64,000 nucleotides of DNA, from the NCBI GenBank assembly GCA_050290185.1, contig JBNKHE010000001.1, positions 194,713 to 258,712 of the forward strand. Reading direction: 5' to 3'. Of this stretch, positions 30,001-45,000 are shown piece by piece. Within the stretch, counting starts at the first letter, position 1, and the number at the start of each line of letters is the position of its first letter. The stretch is from Pontiella sp. GTDB taxonomy: Bacteria; Verrucomicrobiota; Kiritimatiellia; Kiritimatiellales; Pontiellaceae. A program made the position numbers.

Positions 30001-33000
30001 ACGGCCAGCACTACCGCGCTCTCGATGGCCTTCCGGGCCGAGCAGGCTGAAACCGTGGAAATATAGATCTCTTTCTCGGCCAGCGCCTGAAGAAAGGTTT
30101 CCGGACGAACGCCTGCAACGGAATAGTTGATGATGAAGGGCGACGAATCTTCGAGTGTGCCGTTCAGAGCCGTGTCCGGAATCGTATCAAACGTGTCTGC
30201 GATAGACGCTTTGAAGGACCGCAGTCTGGCCAAGACCTCGTCGTGCTTCTCCAGGGAGAGCCGCAAGGCTCTGGCCAGAGCCGCCGCCCGTGCGGCGTCT
30301 GCCGTGCCAGACCGAAACTCAAATTCCTGACCGCCGCCGTGGAGCAACGGGGTCAGCTGTATCCCGTCCCGAAATATCAATGCGCCGGATCCCTTGAGCC
30401 CGAAAAACTTGTGGGCCGAAAATGTCAACAGGTCAACCGGGCTCCCTTCCATGGAAAGGGCAAGCTTGCCAACGGACTGCGCCGCATCGACATGCAATGC
30501 GGCGTTGCTCTTCTCTTTGACGATGGCGCCAAGCCGGGCAATATCGTTGATCGAACCGGTCTCGTTATTGACATGCATCAGGGAAACCAGCGTGGTATCA
30601 GGACGCAATGCATCCCGCAATACGTCGGCTTCCACCCGGCCCGCATTGTTTACGGGGAGCGTGGTGAGCTCGAAACCTTCAGCGGCCAGAAAACGGCACA
30701 CCTCCAGCACAGACGGATGCTCAACTGCGCTGGTAACAATATGCCGTCCGCGATGTCTGTACGCGTGCGTTACCCCCTTGATGGCCAGGTTGTTTGATTC
30801 GGTGGCGCCACTCGTGAACACGCACCGGCACCCTCTGCCGGCACCCAAAAGGGTCTGGACCTGATTCCGAGCCTGTTCCAGCAACATCTCCGCGCGGACT
30901 CCCGGCTGATACAAAGCCCGAGGGTTTGCCCAGAAATCCTGATTGACCGCTTCAAATGTTTTAAGCACCTCTTCGTTCGGAGGCGTGGTGGCTGCATAGT
31001 CAAAATACATAATGAGTTCCTACAAAGGACGGGAAACTACCCTATGCATACAACGATTTCCAATAGAATAGATCAATTGAAGGGAAGGTCATAACCCCCT
31101 GATACAGACCTCCTGCTCACACCATGGAAAAAGAAACACTGCGGCATTGAATTTTAAACTGCTTCAGGGCGACATTAACCGACATAGGAGAATCGAGGAA
31201 TGACCTTAGACAATTCAACGCCGGCATCACCGGCAACCTGGGTGGATGAACATGGAGACGCGCTGTTTGGTTATGCGCTGAGCCGGCTGAAGAATCCCTC
31301 GTCGGCGGAGGACGTGGTGCAGGAAACTTTTCTCGCGGCACTACGCGCGCAAAAGGATTTTTCCGGAAGCTCTTCGGAGCGAACCTGGCTCATCGGCATC
31401 CTGAAGCATAAGATTGTCGACCTCATCCGCAAGGAGAGCCGCGAGCAGCCGCTCGACGAGATCGAAACCATGGAGGCGCCGGAAGAAACTTTCTTCGATC
31501 GCAAGGGCCATTGGCGCGTTAAACCGGTTGAATGGAAGTCCCATCCAGGCAAGATCCTCGAACAGAAGGAATTCATGGCGGTGCTGCTCGGTTGCCTTGA
31601 ACATTTGCCCGATCGACTGCATCGTCTCTTCGTTCTGCGAGAGTTGGAAGAGCTCGACTCGGAAAAAATATGTAAGGATCTGTCCATCACTCCGACCAAC
31701 CTGTGGGTCTTGCTCTACCGCGCCCGCATGCGGCTGCGCGGCTGCCTGACCGAAAACTGGTTCGGGGAAAGGATCTGATATGCTGACGTGCAAGGAAGTA
31801 TCAAAACTGGTATCCGACTCCCTGGAACGCGACCTCCCGTTCCAGCAGCGCCTCGGTGTGCGCATGCACCTGATGATGTGCTCGCTGTGCCGAACCTACA
31901 AACGACAAACGCTTTTCTTGCGGAACCTGTTTACGGGCTACAACCGGCGGTTGGAAGCAGACAATTTCACAAAGACCAAACTACCGGAAGAAACAGCCGA
32001 CCGCATCAAACGGGCGCTGGCTGATCAGGTCGATGACACGCCGGAAAAATAATGTGTAAGGAATCCTGAACTGCTCCGACTACTGTTCAAACCGGGAATA
32101 AACCTGGTCGAATAGTCACTAAAGGAGTGGTTCATGAAAAAGATAATTGCCTTGTACATCCTGTTCCTGCTGGGGGCGTCAAACCTGCATGCGGAACAGA
32201 GCAACTGGTTCACCGACTTTGAAAAGGCCAAGGCGGCCGCCGCCGAACGCAATGTTCCCATTCTGGCCGACTTTGCCGGCTCCGACTGGTGCGGCTGGTG
32301 CATGAAGTTGGATCAGGAAGTGCTCTCCCAACCGGAATTCCAGGTCTATGCCAAGGAGCACTTGGTGTTGTTTCTTGCCGATTTCCCCAACAGCAAACCG
32401 CAGACCGATTCCGTGAAGCAGCAAAACAAGGCGCTTGCGGAATACTACGGCGTGGAAGGCTTCCCGACCGTTCTGCTTTTGAATGCCAACGGCAAGGTCG
32501 TGGGCCGAACAGGATACCGGAAAGGCGGCCTGGCGGCTTATGTGGATCACATCAAATCGCTGCAGAAATAAAGAATTAAAATGAGGAGGTCACAGATCCG
32601 AAAAAACTCCGAATACCTATAGTAAGAGAACGGATCAGAATCGAAGATCGGTAGTTTTGATCCGGCAGATGCCGGACTACATGATTCTGAATTCCAAAAC
32701 ATAAACCAACAGGAGACAGTAAAATGAAGAATAAAACCATGATGATGGCCGCAATCGCGATGACCGTCTTGCTGATGACGATGACCGGATGCAATAGCAT
32801 GTGCGGAAAGAAGGGCTCCTCATGCACAAAAAGCAGCATGAGCGAAATGGCGCATCCAGCCGGATGCAAATGCGAAAAATGCGCCGCGATGTAGCAGACC
32901 TCTTTGACATCCGGGGTGGAAACGCCTCGGATTTTCTTTTCCATATTCTGTAGGGTTTGGCAATCTCACCCGACTATGGGTTGCCGGCTACAATACGTTT

Positions 33001-42000: not shown

Positions 42001-45000
42001 ATGTGACCGTAAATCGCAGATGATTTTCTCCTCGTCATACGGAAGAGGGTCGGAATAAATATCGATGATGAATTCCACGCAACGTTTGATTTTGTTTACC
42101 CGGCTTCCCCAACCCGGAACGACCAAGACCCGAATGATTCCCCACTTGGGTGCGGAAGGTGCGGCGCAGCTGCAAAAGCAGATGACGGAGCATACGGTTC
42201 GCCAAGCCCGCAAAACCGGTGTGCCGATTGAAATCCGCTACACCGGCGGTTCGGAACAGCAGATGCGCGAATGGCTGGGCGGCGATCTCGATTATGCGGA
42301 ACAGGGCGACGGCGATCTGGGTGAACGCATGCGGCGGACGTTTGAAAAGCATTTTTCAACCCGGGCCGAGCGCGTGGTCATTGTCGGGTCCGACTGCCCT
42401 TCCAATGGCTGGAAAAACATGCAGGAGGCCTTTCGCGCGTTGGAAAACACGGATTGCGTGTTGGGTCCTGCGAGTGATGGCGGATACTATTTGATTGGTT
42501 TGTCTAGGGCTGGGACCGAGATCCAGCCCCTATTTGAGGGTATCGACTGGGGCGGTTCGGATGTATTAGAGCAGACCATGAAGGCCGCCGCCGGGCTTTC
42601 GATTCATCAACTTCAAATGCTTCACGACGTCGATCTACCGGAAGACATTCCTCCCAAGATTTCGGTCGTTATCCCAACCCTGAACGAAGAGACGCATCTG
42701 GCCCAAACGCTGGAACGTGTAGGCGAAGGCTTCAACGTCGAGGTGATCGTGGTGGATGGCGGCAGCACGGACGGAACGCGGGCGATTGCGCCCGATTGCC
42801 TGACGTGTTCGGAGGGACGGGCCGCGCAGCAAAACATGGGGGCAAAGGCAGCTTCGGGGGAACTTCTCCTCTTTCTGCATGCCGATACGATCCTTCCAAA
42901 CGGCTGGGATTGGATCGTGCGCGAAACATTGTCCGATCCGTCGGTCGATCTGGGTGCTTTCACCTTCAAGATCCGCGAGGCTTTCCCGGGGCAAAAGCTT
43001 ATCGAGAATGCCACCAACTGGCGCTCCCGTGTACAGCAGCTACCCTACGGCGACCAGGGGCTTTTCCTGAGCAAGGAAATCTTCGATGCGGTAGGCGGTT
43101 TCACGGATATACCGATCATGGAGGACTACGCCTTAGTTCGTTCGTTGCGCAAACATGGCCGCATCGTCACCGCTCCCGAATCGGCCGTTACCTCCGGCCG
43201 CCGCTGGAAACAGCACGGTGTTTTCAAGGTAACGCTGATCAACAAGCTGATGATCCTTGGTTACCACCTTGGGGTTCCTCCCGCCAAGCTCGCTCAATTC
43301 TATCGAAGTAAATGAATTAGGCTTCGCAGTGATGAATTCCCATGATCACGCATTTTGTTTTTCAAAGATACCCAGAGCCCATTCGGTGGCATTTTTCAGA
43401 TCGGTTTCATCGGGATGGCCGGCGGCATCCTTCCATAGTTTCTTGCGCGACTCGGTGGGACCATAGCCGTGATCCTTCGGTAGGGCCTCCATCCATTCAA
43501 TCAGTTCCGGATCGATCGCGCCCTGGCAGATGAAATGGCCAATGATTTCACAATCCGGAATAAGTTTGGCCGTGGCATCAAGGCTTTCGGCCGCATGCTT
43601 GGAATCGGGATAGGCACCGAGAGTGGCAAACAGGGCCACCTTCTGCCCCGAGAGCCGTTTCATATAAAGCTGCATATTTTCATCCGCCGTGCCGTTTTCA
43701 ACCCAGAAGCCAAGCAGGATCAAATCGTAGTTGCACGGGTTGGGAGCCATCTCAACGCGACTTAAATCGGCACAAGGAAGTTCCAAGTGAATGGCTTGAG
43801 CCAATTTACGGGTGTTGCCGGTCTTGCTGGAATAGACGATCAAAGTTTTCATTTAGCTACCTCATTGCGTTGAACGCTGATTTGTTTTCAAAGGGTGTGG
43901 TCTCAGCATTCCTGTCTTGAGTCCCGGCGTCAAGGTTCACCTGACCTGAATGCGTGAAAAAACGCCGAAAATACCCCGCGGGTTTAAAAGGATCGGCCCA
44001 AAAGGACCGTCATACGTGCCATTCCGCCGTAAACCAGCATTCCCAGGAAACCGATGCGGATGAATCTTCGTATCCTATACCTAATAATCTGGATTTGTGG
44101 GGAATATCCCCACACGCCACGCGACTCGACTAGTGGACCTAACCAAAGGAGACACTATGCGAGTTATACGAAAAGCCGGATGGCTGTTGTTGATCGGAAC
44201 CGGATTGCTCTGGCCACAGCAGGGATGGGGAACGTTCCAGGGAGGAATTCTGGTATATGCATGGGACAGCAGTTCCGGCCTCACCCCTCCCCCCTCGACG
44301 TCCGCCCAACTTGATACCAATTCTAGCCAATCTTTCGGCACCAACAATCTGATAATATTTGATGGCTATTTCGAGGCCGGAACACATGTGGTTGAGGTAT
44401 CGAGCGGATCCCGCGGATATGTTCCTCGCCCAAGCCCCACCGACCCGGATGCCTTGAGCGATCCCTATTCGGCTTATGGAAATCCTCGCTATGTCCATAT
44501 TTCGGAAACCACGAATCTCGTGCCCGTCAGCTTCCAGTTTGACCCGGTGGTTACAGTTTCGGCGGTGGTGCGCGATGCATGGACCATGGAGCGGTTGGCC
44601 GACGCCTCCATCCAGTTCATCTTCGAAGGATCCACCGATAAAATCACTATTACCAAATACCCTTCAACGGCCACGTATGCATCAAACTGGCTCAGCGATG
44701 CATCGGGGAATTTCCCCACAAACACGATACTTTATCTCCACAATTATGACATACGCATGACCAAACCCGGCTACCTGCCGTTCATTGAAGCCAATGTGAT
44801 CAGCAATGCTCAGCCAGGGGATGTCATCGACCTTGGAACGATTTTCATGGAACCCATCGACAACAATACAAATCAGATTGCCGATGTGTGGGAGGCTGAA
44901 TTTTTTGGAACAAACAGCACTGTCACAGCCGAGGTAGACGTCGATGGAGACGGCATATCGAATCTCGGCGAATACATCACCGGAACCGATCCCACCAACC

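Follow-up and report, generated by a model that had tools for sequence, protein, structure and literature searches.

One preprint describes arsS as co-transcribed with arsM and assigns to ArsS the step that first commits the route to arsenosugars (bioRxiv 10.1101/2022.09.23.509062). A second one describes ArsS as acting through SAM's C(adenosyl)-S bond, whereas ArsL, a CX3CX2C enzyme in which arsenite is bound by a Cys tail, uses inorganic As(III) and cleaves SAM differently; it places the ArsM reaction of arsinothricin synthesis behind that of the radical-SAM enzyme (bioRxiv 10.1101/2024.02.01.577332). A GxxU selenocysteine site is given for the ArsS model TIGR04167 in a table of a further source (PMC13188914).

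A 64,000-nt stretch (the window) of contig JBNKHE010000001.1 of Pontiella sp. (GCA_050290185.1) was analyzed, and all genes of the cluster named in the initial annotation were found to be present at window positions 31200–43315. The conserved core consists of a 310-aa radical-SAM enzyme, ArsM, a VTT membrane protein, a FAD disulfide reductase and DUF2064/GT2 proteins (TIGR04282/TIGR04283). We read this core (33024–38592 and 42065–43315), with a likelihood just on the probable side, as an arsenosugar-type organoarsenical biosynthesis cluster in which a divergent ArsS-like radical-SAM enzyme would form the C-As bond in place of ArsS.

Organization of the locus

The following features were detected:

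31200..31778, +, ECF sigma factor, TIGR02943 family (Sigma70_r2/r4_2; TIGR02943 193.5 bits, cut-off 162.2)
31780..32052, +, short soluble ZAS (zinc-type) anti-sigma factor, 90 aa (zf-HC2 34.4 bits; NF052368 71.2 bits, cut-off 50; H-x3-C-x2-C motif; a hydrophobic segment was looked for and none seen)
32134..32571, +, exported DsbH-like thioredoxin-fold protein (Thioredoxin_2/7; WCGWC; DsbH NF043050 118.5 bits, under the cut-off of 190; signal-like N-terminal segment)
32724..32894, +, 56-aa Cys-rich lipoprotein ORF (MTGC lipobox; mature part with 6 Cys; no Pfam family matched in the search)
32909..32932, +, terminator-like hairpin, 15 nt 3′ of the lipoprotein stop codon (10 pairs, 6 of them G-C, then a T-run; consensus match only)
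33024..33752, +, DUF547 protein (DUF547 98.8 bits; signal peptide; C-x4-C-P motif)
33755..34687, +, putative ArsS-like radical-SAM enzyme, unnamed family (CX3CX2C at C44/C48/C51; C249, C267, C297, C300 and C307 conserved)
34696..35763, +, predicted As(III) SAM methyltransferase, ArsM type (structure homology; C34, C62, C157, C207)
35780..36397, +, exported AhpC/TSA-fold protein (AhpC-TSA 99.9 bits; WCPYC (CxxC); signal peptide; every NCBIfam match under its cut-off)
36384..37085, +, VTT/TVP38 (DedA-superfamily) membrane protein (VTT_dom 100.4 bits; 5 hydrophobic segments)
37078..38592, +, class I FAD/NAD(P)H disulfide reductase, MerA-like but not MerA (NF004991 780.8 bits, cut-off 620; CLNVGC redox pair)
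38467..38542, +, 76-nt direct repeat, copy 1, at the 3′ end of the FAD reductase gene
38596..40632, +, 678-aa protein combining a polytopic membrane domain with GT2 (TIGR04283 158.3 bits, under the cut-off of 182, residues 447–655; 7 hydrophobic segments in residues 1–382)
40629..40704, +, 76-nt direct repeat, copy 2 (89% identical), left over from the reductase 3′ end and lying directly after the 678-aa glycosyltransferase gene
40901..41971, −, exported MsrA-MsrB fusion (PMSR 193.2 bits; SelR 166.1 bits)
42065..43315, +, fused DUF2064 (TIGR04282) and GT2 (TIGR04283) protein, 416 aa (208.1 bits, cut-off 134; 234.9 bits, cut-off 182)

From DUF547 through the 678-aa glycosyltransferase the genes overlap or are separated by at most 16 nt, with 33024 and 35780 as the most likely starts of the DUF547 and AhpC/TSA-fold genes. 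The hairpin at 32909–32932 splits the sigma/anti-sigma/thioredoxin/lipoprotein unit from the genes starting at DUF547; terminator-like sites overall showed no enrichment (19 observed vs. 15.7 ± 3.9 in shuffles). The lipoprotein ORF had been missed in the initial annotation; a counterpart of it in one related locus (L007, 47% identical) was also located between the thioredoxin and DUF547 genes. In four relatives (L004, L008, L066 and L104) the DUF2064-GT2 gene comes immediately after the reductase gene, and this order together with the repeat relic makes the 678-aa glycosyltransferase and msrAB genes look like an insertion between the two.

The protein at 35780..36397, first called a peroxiredoxin, does have the AhpC/TSA fold, but looks like a TlpA/ResA-type thiol:disulfide oxidoreductase because of its WCPYC motif. 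The flavoprotein was confirmed as a MerA-like disulfide reductase; as MerA itself it was rejected, since it lacks the C-terminal Cys pair and scored 412.5 bits against TIGR02053 (cut-off 454.45). The 416-aa protein exceeded the cut-offs of both of its families, as had been reported, and its DUF2064 half matched 3cgx, a "putative nucleotide-diphospho-sugar transferase" (E 1.8e-28). A search for a solved relative of the DUF547 protein gave none. Roles given to DUF2064, GT2, VTT, reductase and DUF547 proteins are guesswork based on the names of their folds or families.

The radical-SAM enzyme, ArsM and arsenic context

The NCBIfam scores reported earlier for the methyltransferase, the radical-SAM enzyme and the 678-aa glycosyltransferase were reproduced. 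Against TIGR04167 the radical-SAM enzyme scored 39.7 bits (cut-off 300), so that it was rejected as a member of that family, in agreement with the view that it is not ArsS in this sense; its top match, to the core only, was the uncharacterized Rv1681 family (100 bits, cut-off 380). DUF3641 was not found in it with a threshold as loose as E ≤ 1, as against 184–191 bits for two ArsS sequences. Nevertheless, hhalign comparison of 46 members of its family with six ArsS sequences gave a probability of 99.3% (E 1.2e-20) over 262 columns that start in the core and run up to the final residues, at about 20% identity. The C-terminal 86 residues alone aligned at E 3.8e-4 over 62 columns with five Cys collinear, at a probability of 35.8% that is weak in isolation; five column shuffles and one reversal used as controls gave E 0.016–0.59 over 1–11 columns. 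The tail HHRC[YFH]xCFxxG[AST][ST]C was present in 79 of 80 related loci, the remaining one having Q in place of G, and the tail Cys were kept in all 80. The ArsS tail is HC[YF]GCTAGxGSSC; that of the family likewise ends in GxxC, its last Cys corresponding to the selenocysteine site of TIGR04167. Profiles of solved radical-SAM enzymes covered only positions 27–203 of the family, and Foldseek gave a result generic for twitch/SPASM enzymes. Judged from these alignments, the enzyme is a remote full-length ArsS homologue sharing five C-terminal Cys. The initial proposal of a second route by a different radical-SAM enzyme thus holds as far as membership in TIGR04167 is concerned, but not in the sense of an unrelated enzyme, and a divergent ArsS-like family standing in for ArsS fits the data better than a route of different chemistry.

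The methyltransferase showed homology to solved ArsM structures (E 2e-108 to 5evj, full length; 8.9e-83 to 4fr0), which bears out its description as an arsenite methyltransferase homologue. Its C34, C62, C157 and C207 align with C44, C72, C174 and C224 of 4fr0, the four As-binding Cys, and these were invariant across 17 homologues linked to the radical-SAM enzyme or to ArsS. It scored 174.7 bits against NF008823, under the cut-off of 263. By sequence, it is of the bona fide ArsM type.

The ars operon reported on contig C2 proved real, with ArsA (746.7 bits, cut-off 650), ArsD (117, cut-off 90), Acr3 (390, cut-off 282.8) and ArsR/SmtB (85, cut-off 55) over their cut-offs and an ArsC type under it (152, cut-off 174); it lies far from the window cluster (at least 10 contigs' worth apart). 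The earlier statement that the arsenic link rested on one methyltransferase homology and on family names taken from genome context was found to be too narrow. In a congener (L104) an ArsR/SmtB regulator (77.4 bits, cut-off 55) and Acr3 (274 bits, cut piece) come directly after the cluster, while an ArsR-family regulator and an ArsP_1 permease stand before it, and arsC is located within about 1.5 kb of the radical-SAM gene in two more loci (L033 and L045). Of 88 loci inspected, only 3 had such adjoining ars genes.

Linkage, fusions and distribution

At least one of the methyltransferase, VTT, FAD reductase and glycosyltransferase genes was located within 10 kb of the radical-SAM gene in 57 of the 80 related loci (27, 28, 27 and 31 loci, respectively, when counted separately), and the arrangement is therefore not due to chance. 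DUF2064-GT2 homologues were found within the same distance in 30/80 loci and DUF547 nearby in nine. An ECF sigma homologue was near in only five of the 80, all from Pontiella-like genomes, thioredoxin in three, MsrAB in one at the set coverage, and homologues of the 678-aa glycosyltransferase in four (and near ArsS in L097). These four, although rightly reported at the locus, are lineage-specific additions, the first three being peripheral to the cluster.

Fusions of the types ArsM-rSAM, rSAM-ArsM, DUF2064-rSAM, rSAM-HD/YfbR-like and Metallophos-rSAM (rSAM, radical-SAM) were found on several contigs, one isolate genome among them; in one genome (G142), ArsM is fused to a related radical-SAM core beside a DUF2064-GT2 gene. 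At least five loci had a fusion of VTT with the FAD reductase. A MTAP gene (TIGR01694 288 bits, cut-off 274.85) adjoins the radical-SAM gene in seven loci, a nucleoside hint. In Omnitrophota the radical-SAM gene lies among pentose-phosphate genes (transaldolase, transketolase, 6-phosphogluconolactonase).

The unnamed family was spread across many phyla, with 594 or more species genomes carrying it, including Gammaproteobacteria, Rhodospirillales and others, and is not confined to anaerobes, which does not fit a pathway that had been presented as an anaerobe trait. ArsS over the TIGR04167 cut-off was found in none of 53 carrier genomes, a result that is weak by itself since ArsS is rare anyway (6/151 genomes). 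Canonical ArsS loci have partners in common with the family, namely ArsM (L102), DUF547 (adjoining in two of six ArsS loci, L097 and L099) and a large glycosyltransferase with a methyltransferase (L097). Among 45 carrier genomes, TIGR04283 was detected at E ≤ 1e-40 in 38 (31 over the cut-off), compared to 7/151 in the phylum sample (4 over the cut-off), and was over the cut-off in all five genomes in which the radical-SAM gene stands alone. Within the genus, all three of the radical-SAM, methyltransferase and DUF2064-GT2 genes were present in G106 and all three were missing from G133 and G139. Conserved neighborhood, gene fusions and joint presence or absence support a functional tie of the enzyme to ArsM and TIGR04282/TIGR04283 proteins.

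Among 20 carriers chosen for having no methyltransferase adjoining the radical-SAM gene (most proteobacterial, mostly MAGs of uncertain completeness), only two had an ArsM homologue at E ≤ 1e-30; NF008823 was matched at E ≤ 1e-20 in only five of these 20, three of them with at least 180 bits. Since most tested proteobacterial carriers had no detectable ArsM, the family does not need it.

Proposed pathway and competing readings

As(III) would be methylated by ArsM to trivalent methyl or dimethyl arsenic. The radical-SAM enzyme would cleave SAM reductively and make a further C-As bond, most likely, by ArsS homology, by transfer of a 5′-deoxyadenosyl group to dimethylarsenite; its C-terminal Cys-rich domain would hold an auxiliary cluster and/or the arsenical, with C307 at the ArsS Cys/Sec position. 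After adenine removal, the nucleotidyl-transferase-like DUF2064 and GT2 proteins may activate the arsenoribose and transfer it to an acceptor, either of glycerol type or a lipid. The VTT protein and the reductase would form one membrane-bound unit, serving either to hold arsenic or thiols in the reduced state or to transport an intermediate that is lipid-linked or imported. The lineage-specific sigma/anti-sigma pair, exported CxxC proteins, Cys-rich lipoprotein and MsrAB probably handle envelope thiol damage and regulate the cluster. Radical attachment of methylated arsenic, as first proposed, is retained as a proposal through the ArsM type and the tie to ArsM and TIGR04282/TIGR04283 proteins, with the radical-SAM enzyme now read as ArsS-like.

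It is unlikely, although conceivable, that an organoarsenical is made by radical-SAM chemistry differing from that of ArsS and that the product is not a classical ribose arsenosugar; the enzyme might act first, on inorganic As(III) like ArsL, transfer a group other than 5′-deoxyadenosyl, or modify a lipid or sugar after arsenic attachment. The low ArsS identity, the C-terminal domain not recognized as DUF3641, the ArsL chemistry and late ArsM step cited above, and the fusions in both orders agree with this, and with most tested proteobacterial carriers lacking ArsM, dimethylarsenite of intracellular origin is excluded as a general substrate. On the other hand, neither the ArsL family nor its RCCLKC tail was seen (the ArsL NCBIfam model was not among the best 25 of 35 matches), the tail agrees with ArsS and not ArsL, a product bearing a nucleoside is suggested by the MTAP, HD-nucleotidase-like and phosphoesterase partners, and the partner glycosyltransferase families are those that NCBI names for arsenosugar clusters.

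These names derive from genome context and not from assays, which leaves some room, though we regard it as quite improbable, for a module that serves another glycoconjugate, cofactor, metalloid or chalcogen and recruited ArsM in some lineages only. Five-gene operons of DUF2064, VTT, reductase, GT2 and radical-SAM genes with no ArsM detectable in most of the 20 genomes, the Omnitrophota pentose-phosphate context and the selenoprotein forms of ArsS itself are in line with this. It is opposed by full-length ArsM with all As-binding Cys fused to the radical-SAM enzyme in both orders in several phyla, by the G142 arrangement, by arsR-acr3 or arsC neighbors in three loci, and by ArsS, the sole characterized homologue, being an arsenic enzyme; carriers without ArsM could take up dimethylarsenic from sea water. 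Very improbable is a thiol/oxidative-stress regulon under a RsrA/SigR-like pair, with ArsM as a simple detoxifying methylase and the radical-SAM enzyme as an unrelated passenger, which would suit the soluble ZAS factor (HxxxCxxC) adjoining the sigma factor and the two exported CxxC proteins together with MsrAB and the disulfide reductase, but sigma, thioredoxin and MsrAB accompany the enzyme far less often than the core partners, msrAB sits inside the apparent insertion, and the rSAM-ArsM and DUF2064-rSAM fusions exclude a passenger role.

Under the preferred reading of an arsenosugar-type cluster with an ArsS-like enzyme, the pairing of ArsM with an unnamed, widespread ArsS cousin in a marine anaerobe suggests that complex organoarsenicals are made by many non-photosynthetic bacteria.

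Gene content and organization of the locus

The gene set at 31200-43315 reported in the initial annotation was found as described there, and the scores quoted for it were reproduced.

Predicted genes of the locus and of the region directly following it (window positions, strand, product)
31200-31778, +, ECF sigma factor; TIGR02943 193.5 bits (cut-off 162.2)
31780-32052, +, soluble ZAS anti-sigma factor, 90 aa; PF13490 (zf-HC2) 34.4 bits (cut-off 22.2); NF052368 71.2 bits (cut-off 50); H30-C34-C37 (HxxxCxxC)
32134-32571, +, exported thioredoxin-fold protein; DsbH model 118.5 bits (cut-off 190, not reached)
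32724-32894, +, Cys-rich lipoprotein ORF, 56 aa, lipobox MTGC; between the thioredoxin-fold and DUF547 genes
33024-33752 (most likely), +, DUF547 protein with signal peptide
33755-34687, +, radical-SAM protein, 310 aa
34696-35763, +, ArsM-like methyltransferase
35780-36397, +, exported AhpC/TSA-fold protein, WCPYC motif
36384-37085, +, VTT (VTT/TVP38) membrane protein
37078-38592, +, FAD disulfide reductase; NF004991 'FAD-containing oxidoreductase' 780.8 bits (cut-off 620)
38596-40632, +, membrane protein with GT2 domain, 678 aa; TIGR04283 158.3 bits (cut-off 182, not reached)
40901-41971, -, msrAB
42065-43315, +, DUF2064+GT2 fusion, 416 aa; TIGR04282 208.1 bits (cut-off 134); TIGR04283 234.9 bits (cut-off 182)
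43346-43852, -, flavodoxin, convergent to the DUF2064-GT2 gene; Flavodoxin_3 155.5 bits
44097-45341, +, 414-aa ORF; no Pfam or NCBIfam family at E ≤ 0.001

From the DUF547 gene to the gene for the 678-aa glycosyltransferase, neighbouring genes overlapped or were spaced by 16 nt or less, which fits a predicted single transcript. The 56-aa lipoprotein ORF, for which no Pfam family was found, contained six Cys and a Met-rich mature part and was 47% identical to an ORF at the equivalent place in another locus (L007); it may encode an envelope peptide binding metal or metalloid. A terminator-like hairpin was located directly 3′ of it. Since an Rfam scan of 30800-45500 at E ≤ 1 gave zero matches, no riboswitch accounts for the 450-bp gap 3′ of the thioredoxin-fold gene; this gap is occupied by the lipoprotein ORF. 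Comparison of four upstream regions by eye showed no convincing common ECF promoter motif.

Two copies of a 76-nt direct repeat with 89% identity were found at 38467-38542 and 40629-40704. The second copy lies immediately 3′ of the 678-aa glycosyltransferase gene and represents a relic of the reductase 3′ end, removed from its original context. In four other loci (L004, L008, L066 and the congener locus L104) the DUF2064-GT2 gene directly followed the reductase gene. Because of the repeat and the gene order in relatives, the 678-aa glycosyltransferase gene and msrAB look inserted into an older cluster, between its reductase and DUF2064-GT2 genes.

Some gene identities had to be revised. The AhpC/TSA-fold protein, previously named a peroxiredoxin, reached neither a peroxiredoxin cut-off nor that of any other curated model (best NF006960, 60.6 bits, cut-off 140), and its WCPYC motif is of a type typical of thiol:disulfide oxidoreductases. 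The flavoprotein described as MerA-like was shown to be a member of NF004991 and not MerA: it scored 412.5 bits with TIGR02053 (cut-off 454.45) and contained zero Cys in its last 130 residues, so that no C-terminal Cys pair is present. As for the two proteins assigned to the 'arsenosugar' glycosyltransferases TIGR04283/TIGR04282, the assignment holds for the 416-aa protein, which exceeded both cut-offs, and not for the 678-aa protein. The flavodoxin could be a reductant for the radical-SAM enzyme.

Relationship of the radical-SAM enzyme and its partner to ArsS and ArsM

TIGR04167 describes ArsS, which acts in cyanobacterial arsenosugar synthesis as its radical-SAM enzyme, transferring 5'-deoxyadenosyl to dimethylarsenite, and is encoded next to arsM. 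With this model the 310-aa enzyme scored 39.7 bits (cut-off 300; 35.6 bits in the genome scan), covering core residues 28-177 only. DUF3641 was not detected at E ≤ 1 in this enzyme or in two distant members of its unnamed family (the new family), whereas two ArsS sequences scored 183.8-191.2 bits. The earlier statement that the enzyme is not ArsS was thus upheld. A profile of 46 family members nevertheless matched a profile of 6 ArsS sequences at 99.3% (E 1.2e-20) over 262 columns, which extend from the core through to the final residue. Taken by itself, the segment of 86 C-terminal residues also matched ArsS (E 3.8e-4) with five Cys in register, compared to E 0.016-0.59 for shuffled and reversed controls; profiles of solved radical-SAM enzymes ended at family position 203. 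The CX3CX2C motif corresponds to C44/C48/C51, and C249, C267, C297, C300 and C307 align with Cys of ArsS. The tail HHRC[YFH]xCFxxG[AST][ST]C was present in 79 of 80 examined loci, Q replacing G in the remaining one, and the final Cys in all 80; the ArsS tail reads HC[YF]GCTAGxGSSC. This final Cys occupies the position of the GxxU selenocysteine site of TIGR04167, a site listed in a table of PMC13188914.

The two families resemble each other in the CX3CX2C core, in length (310 vs. about 325 aa), in the five collinear C-terminal Cys with a CxxC...GxxC tail at the extreme C-terminus, in a gene directly beside arsM (8-nt gap in the window) and in the partner families DUF547, TIGR04283-type glycosyltransferase and large membrane glycosyltransferase. 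Among ArsS loci, such partners were ArsM (L102), DUF547 (L097, L099) and a large glycosyltransferase with a methyltransferase (L097). They differ in that identity between the enzyme and ArsS is about 20%, and in that the new family is marked by invariant motifs of its own, WFHTGTxCN and YACTLVDDD, showed zero selenocysteine forms in 80 loci, is usually linked to a VTT-reductase pair, and often occurs in genomes without ArsM and mostly in non-phototrophs. The shared core, full-length alignment and collinear Cys, together with the failed ArsS model, therefore identify a remote sister family of the same architecture that is not ArsS.

The AlphaFold model of the enzyme was confident (pLDDT 94.2) and in Foldseek showed a general resemblance to twitch/SPASM-type enzymes. 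Foldseek and a sequence search of solved structures returned generic cores only (SkfB, BlsE, SuiB, MoaA, viperin) and no specific functional lead, and the ESM Atlas returned only unnamed 'radical SAM protein' clusters. Neither the new family nor a second ArsS-like family was found described in the literature searched, where subscription ArsS papers were represented by passages citing them. Searches for TIGR04282, TIGR04283 and TIGR04167 retrieved unrelated surveys and selenoprotein tables only, and the accessible part of the paper on Synechocystis slr0305 held no arsenic context.

The methyltransferase scored below the NCBIfam cut-offs (NF008823, 174.7 bits, cut-off 263; arsenosugar ArsM NF038099, 103.5 bits, cut-off 400). 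It matched the solved ArsM structures of Chlamydomonas and Cyanidioschyzon in full length, including the C-terminal domain (5evj, E 2e-108, residues 14-344; 4fr0, E 8.9e-83). Its C34, C62, C157 and C207 align with C44, C72, C174 and C224 of the 4fr0 chain, the conserved As-binding Cys, and these four were invariant in 17 homologues from loci linked to the new family or ArsS. On these alignments it is regarded as a true ArsM-type enzyme. Unlike 5evj and 4fr0, it is encoded 8 nt behind a radical-SAM gene and has a Cys-rich C-terminal end (…SCGC). A predicted complex of the two enzymes scored 0.00 (mark 0.32).

The most likely reading, which we hold with moderate confidence, is that the radical-SAM enzyme would form a C-As bond in the fashion of ArsS in an arsenosugar-type pathway. 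We infer the roles of DUF2064 (3cgx-like fold), GT2, VTT, the reductase and DUF547, for the last of which a solved relative was not found. A C-As chemistry different from that of ArsS is considered unlikely. The ArsL-ArsM pair of arsinothricin synthesis, as presented in the accessible passages, resembles the proposed pair in combining a CX3CX2C radical-SAM enzyme carrying a C-terminal Cys motif with an ArsM-type partner to build a C-As bond. Unlike ArsL, the window enzyme has no RCCLKC tail, and no ArsL family match to it was found among the matches listed; the window methyltransferase scored 156.3 bits with the arsinothricin ArsM model NF040538 (cut-off 500). The window also has glycosyltransferase, VTT and reductase partners, unlike the arsQML cluster as outlined in the abstract of PMC8552651.

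Distribution, gene neighbourhood and fusions of the family

A sequence search with the enzyme found 2851 proteins at E ≤ 0.001; the 120 matches listed were 63-100% identical across phyla and had generic names only. Judged by its sequences, the family is strongly conserved. It was encoded in at least 594 species genomes, from Kiritimatiellota, Lentisphaerota, Omnitrophota, Planctomycetota, Gammaproteobacteria, Rhodospirillales, Desulfuromonadales, Gemmatimonadota, Hydrogenedentota, Calditrichota and others, and was patchy and rare in the phylum of the window (3/151 sampled genomes). One genome (G200, locus L079) is unpublished; it is one unit in the species, locus and carrier counts, and no claim hangs on it.

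At least one of methyltransferase, VTT, FAD reductase and glycosyltransferase was encoded within the available flank (10 kb or less) in 57 of 80 loci (27, 28, 27 and 31 loci, respectively), and a core partner in 23 of the 31 loci with at least 5 kb on both sides. Gamma- and alphaproteobacterial loci showed the compact order DUF2064, VTT, reductase, GT2, radical SAM. In at least five loci (L053, L070, L052, L068, L078) VTT and FAD reductase formed one ORF of 709-775 aa, and ORFs of about 775 aa were also found in L021 and L055; because both are encoded as one ORF, several Proteobacteria and Desulfuromonadales have a reductase that is anchored at the membrane by its link to VTT. An FNR-like FAD/NAD reductase gene adjoined the radical-SAM gene in 15 loci and an MTAP gene in 7 (TIGR01694 288 bits, cut-off 274.85).

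Among the representative-library proteins, ArsM was fused to the radical-SAM enzyme in both orders (ArsM first, P0122, P0137; radical SAM first, P0123, P0262), the ArsM parts being full length with Cys motifs kept and 47-48% identical where compared (P0122, P0123). Other fusions were DUF2064-radical SAM (P0169), radical SAM-HD/YfbR-like (P0174), Metallophos-radical SAM (P0161, P0184) and Pyr_redox-radical SAM (P0183). Several of these fusions were seen again on further, independent contigs, including one from an isolate of Deferribacter. Besides, a 1048-aa fusion of a radical-SAM core, an ArsM-like domain and DUF5714 was observed in genome G142 (L105:7088-10234, - strand). Its core was 32% identical to that of the window enzyme over 187 aa and its ArsM-like domain 35% identical to the window methyltransferase, with Cys motifs kept. 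Lying directly upstream of a DUF2064-GT2 gene and near a VTT gene, it is a third architecture on the same theme.

Within the genus, genome G106 had the radical-SAM, methyltransferase and DUF2064-GT2 genes; with these queries all three were absent from G133 and G139 (94-95% complete). All five genomes with a lone radical-SAM gene contained a TIGR04283 protein over the cut-off, and four contained an ArsM more than 50% identical, in three of these beside a glycosyltransferase. TIGR04283 was found at E ≤ 1e-40 in 38 of 45 further carriers (31 over the cut-off) and in 7 of 151 genomes of the phylum sample (4 over the cut-off); of these seven, two had the new family, three ArsS and one (G142) the 1048-aa fusion. 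ArsS was found in 0 of 53 carriers, a result weak alone because ArsS is rare anyway (6/151 sampled genomes), and mutual exclusion as a statistical argument was dropped as weak.

The ars resistance genes initially reported on contig C2 of the window's genome, a different contig from the cluster, were found to be arsR-acr3-arsC-arsD-arsA. The congener locus L104 showed the order ArsR-family regulator, ArsP_1 permease, TauE-like piece, thioredoxin, DsbD_TM, radical SAM, ArsM, sigma, anti-sigma, DUF547, ZIP, VTT, reductase, DUF2064-GT2, one unknown gene, ArsR/SmtB and Acr3. Its permease is ArsP_1 from Pfam only, the NCBIfam matches being sub-threshold Cu/Zn- or SaoE-type efflux models. An arsC gene was located near the radical-SAM gene in L033 and L045. 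An ArsR-family regulator, a thioredoxin, DsbD_TM and an ArsP_1-type permease 83% identical to that of the congener were also observed at C7:108241-110666; this set, directly upstream of the radical-SAM gene in the congener, thus lies on a separate contig in the window's genome.

A function without relation to arsenic is regarded as improbable. Among 20 carriers chosen since they have no methyltransferase gene beside the radical-SAM gene, an ArsM homologue at E ≤ 1e-30 was found in only 2, and NF008823 at E ≤ 1e-20 in only 5, of which three reached at least 180 bits. In Omnitrophota loci (L011, L023 and others) the gene lay amid transaldolase, transketolase and 6-phosphogluconolactonase genes, the usual partners being elsewhere in the same genomes. 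Unless MAG incompleteness explains the missing ArsM, the new family would work without it in many Proteobacteria. Methylated arsenic taken up from outside, or inorganic As(III), might then serve such carriers as substrate; alternatively, the module might not be specific for arsenic.

A plain stress regulon is highly unlikely. As in SigR-RsrA, where RsrA senses thiol oxidants, a short soluble HxxxCxxC zinc anti-sigma factor adjoins thioredoxin and methionine sulfoxide reductase genes; as differences from SigR-RsrA, the window sigma factor belongs to TIGR02943 and the sigma/anti-sigma pair occurs only in Pontiella-like relatives. Such neighbours were infrequent in the 80 loci (sigma 5, thioredoxin 3, MsrAB 1, peroxiredoxin-fold 7; DUF547 9). 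The genes for regulation and for thiol redox in the envelope were added locally to the conserved unit. The initial interpretation, a pathway methylating As(III) and attaching it by radical chemistry to a sugar or lipid carrier, is partly supported and sharpened to a conserved unit of ArsS-like radical-SAM enzyme plus ArsM, DUF2064/GT2 and the VTT-reductase pair.

Possible implications for arsenosugar synthesis

To our knowledge, the genetic definition of bacterial arsenosugar synthesis is limited to cyanobacterial arsM-arsS and does not reach the later steps. The locus directs attention to a widespread sister family of ArsS, a candidate enzyme family whose members currently carry only the annotation 'radical SAM protein'. 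The recurring partners DUF2064, GT2, VTT, FAD reductase, DUF547 and MTAP are candidates for catalysing those later steps, and the natural ArsM-radical SAM fusions are ready-made assay constructs.

A wider reading is offered tentatively, as a possibility we consider doubtful when taken as a whole: that in non-photosynthetic aquatic bacteria C-As bonds are formed mainly by the new family, which at least 594 species genomes encode, and that together with the membrane VTT-reductase unit and DUF2064/GT2 it turns methylated arsenic, from ArsM or, where ArsM is missing, from sea-water uptake, into an envelope-bound or exported arsenosugar or arsenolipid. If true, heterotrophic and anaerobic bacteria, beyond algae and cyanobacteria, would be sources of marine arsenosugars.

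The Cys/Sec-type C-terminal residue common to the two radical-SAM families would become directly testable mechanistically. If the arsenosugar-type pathway is confirmed, anaerobic polysaccharide degraders and many marine heterotrophs would join the known producers of complex organoarsenicals.
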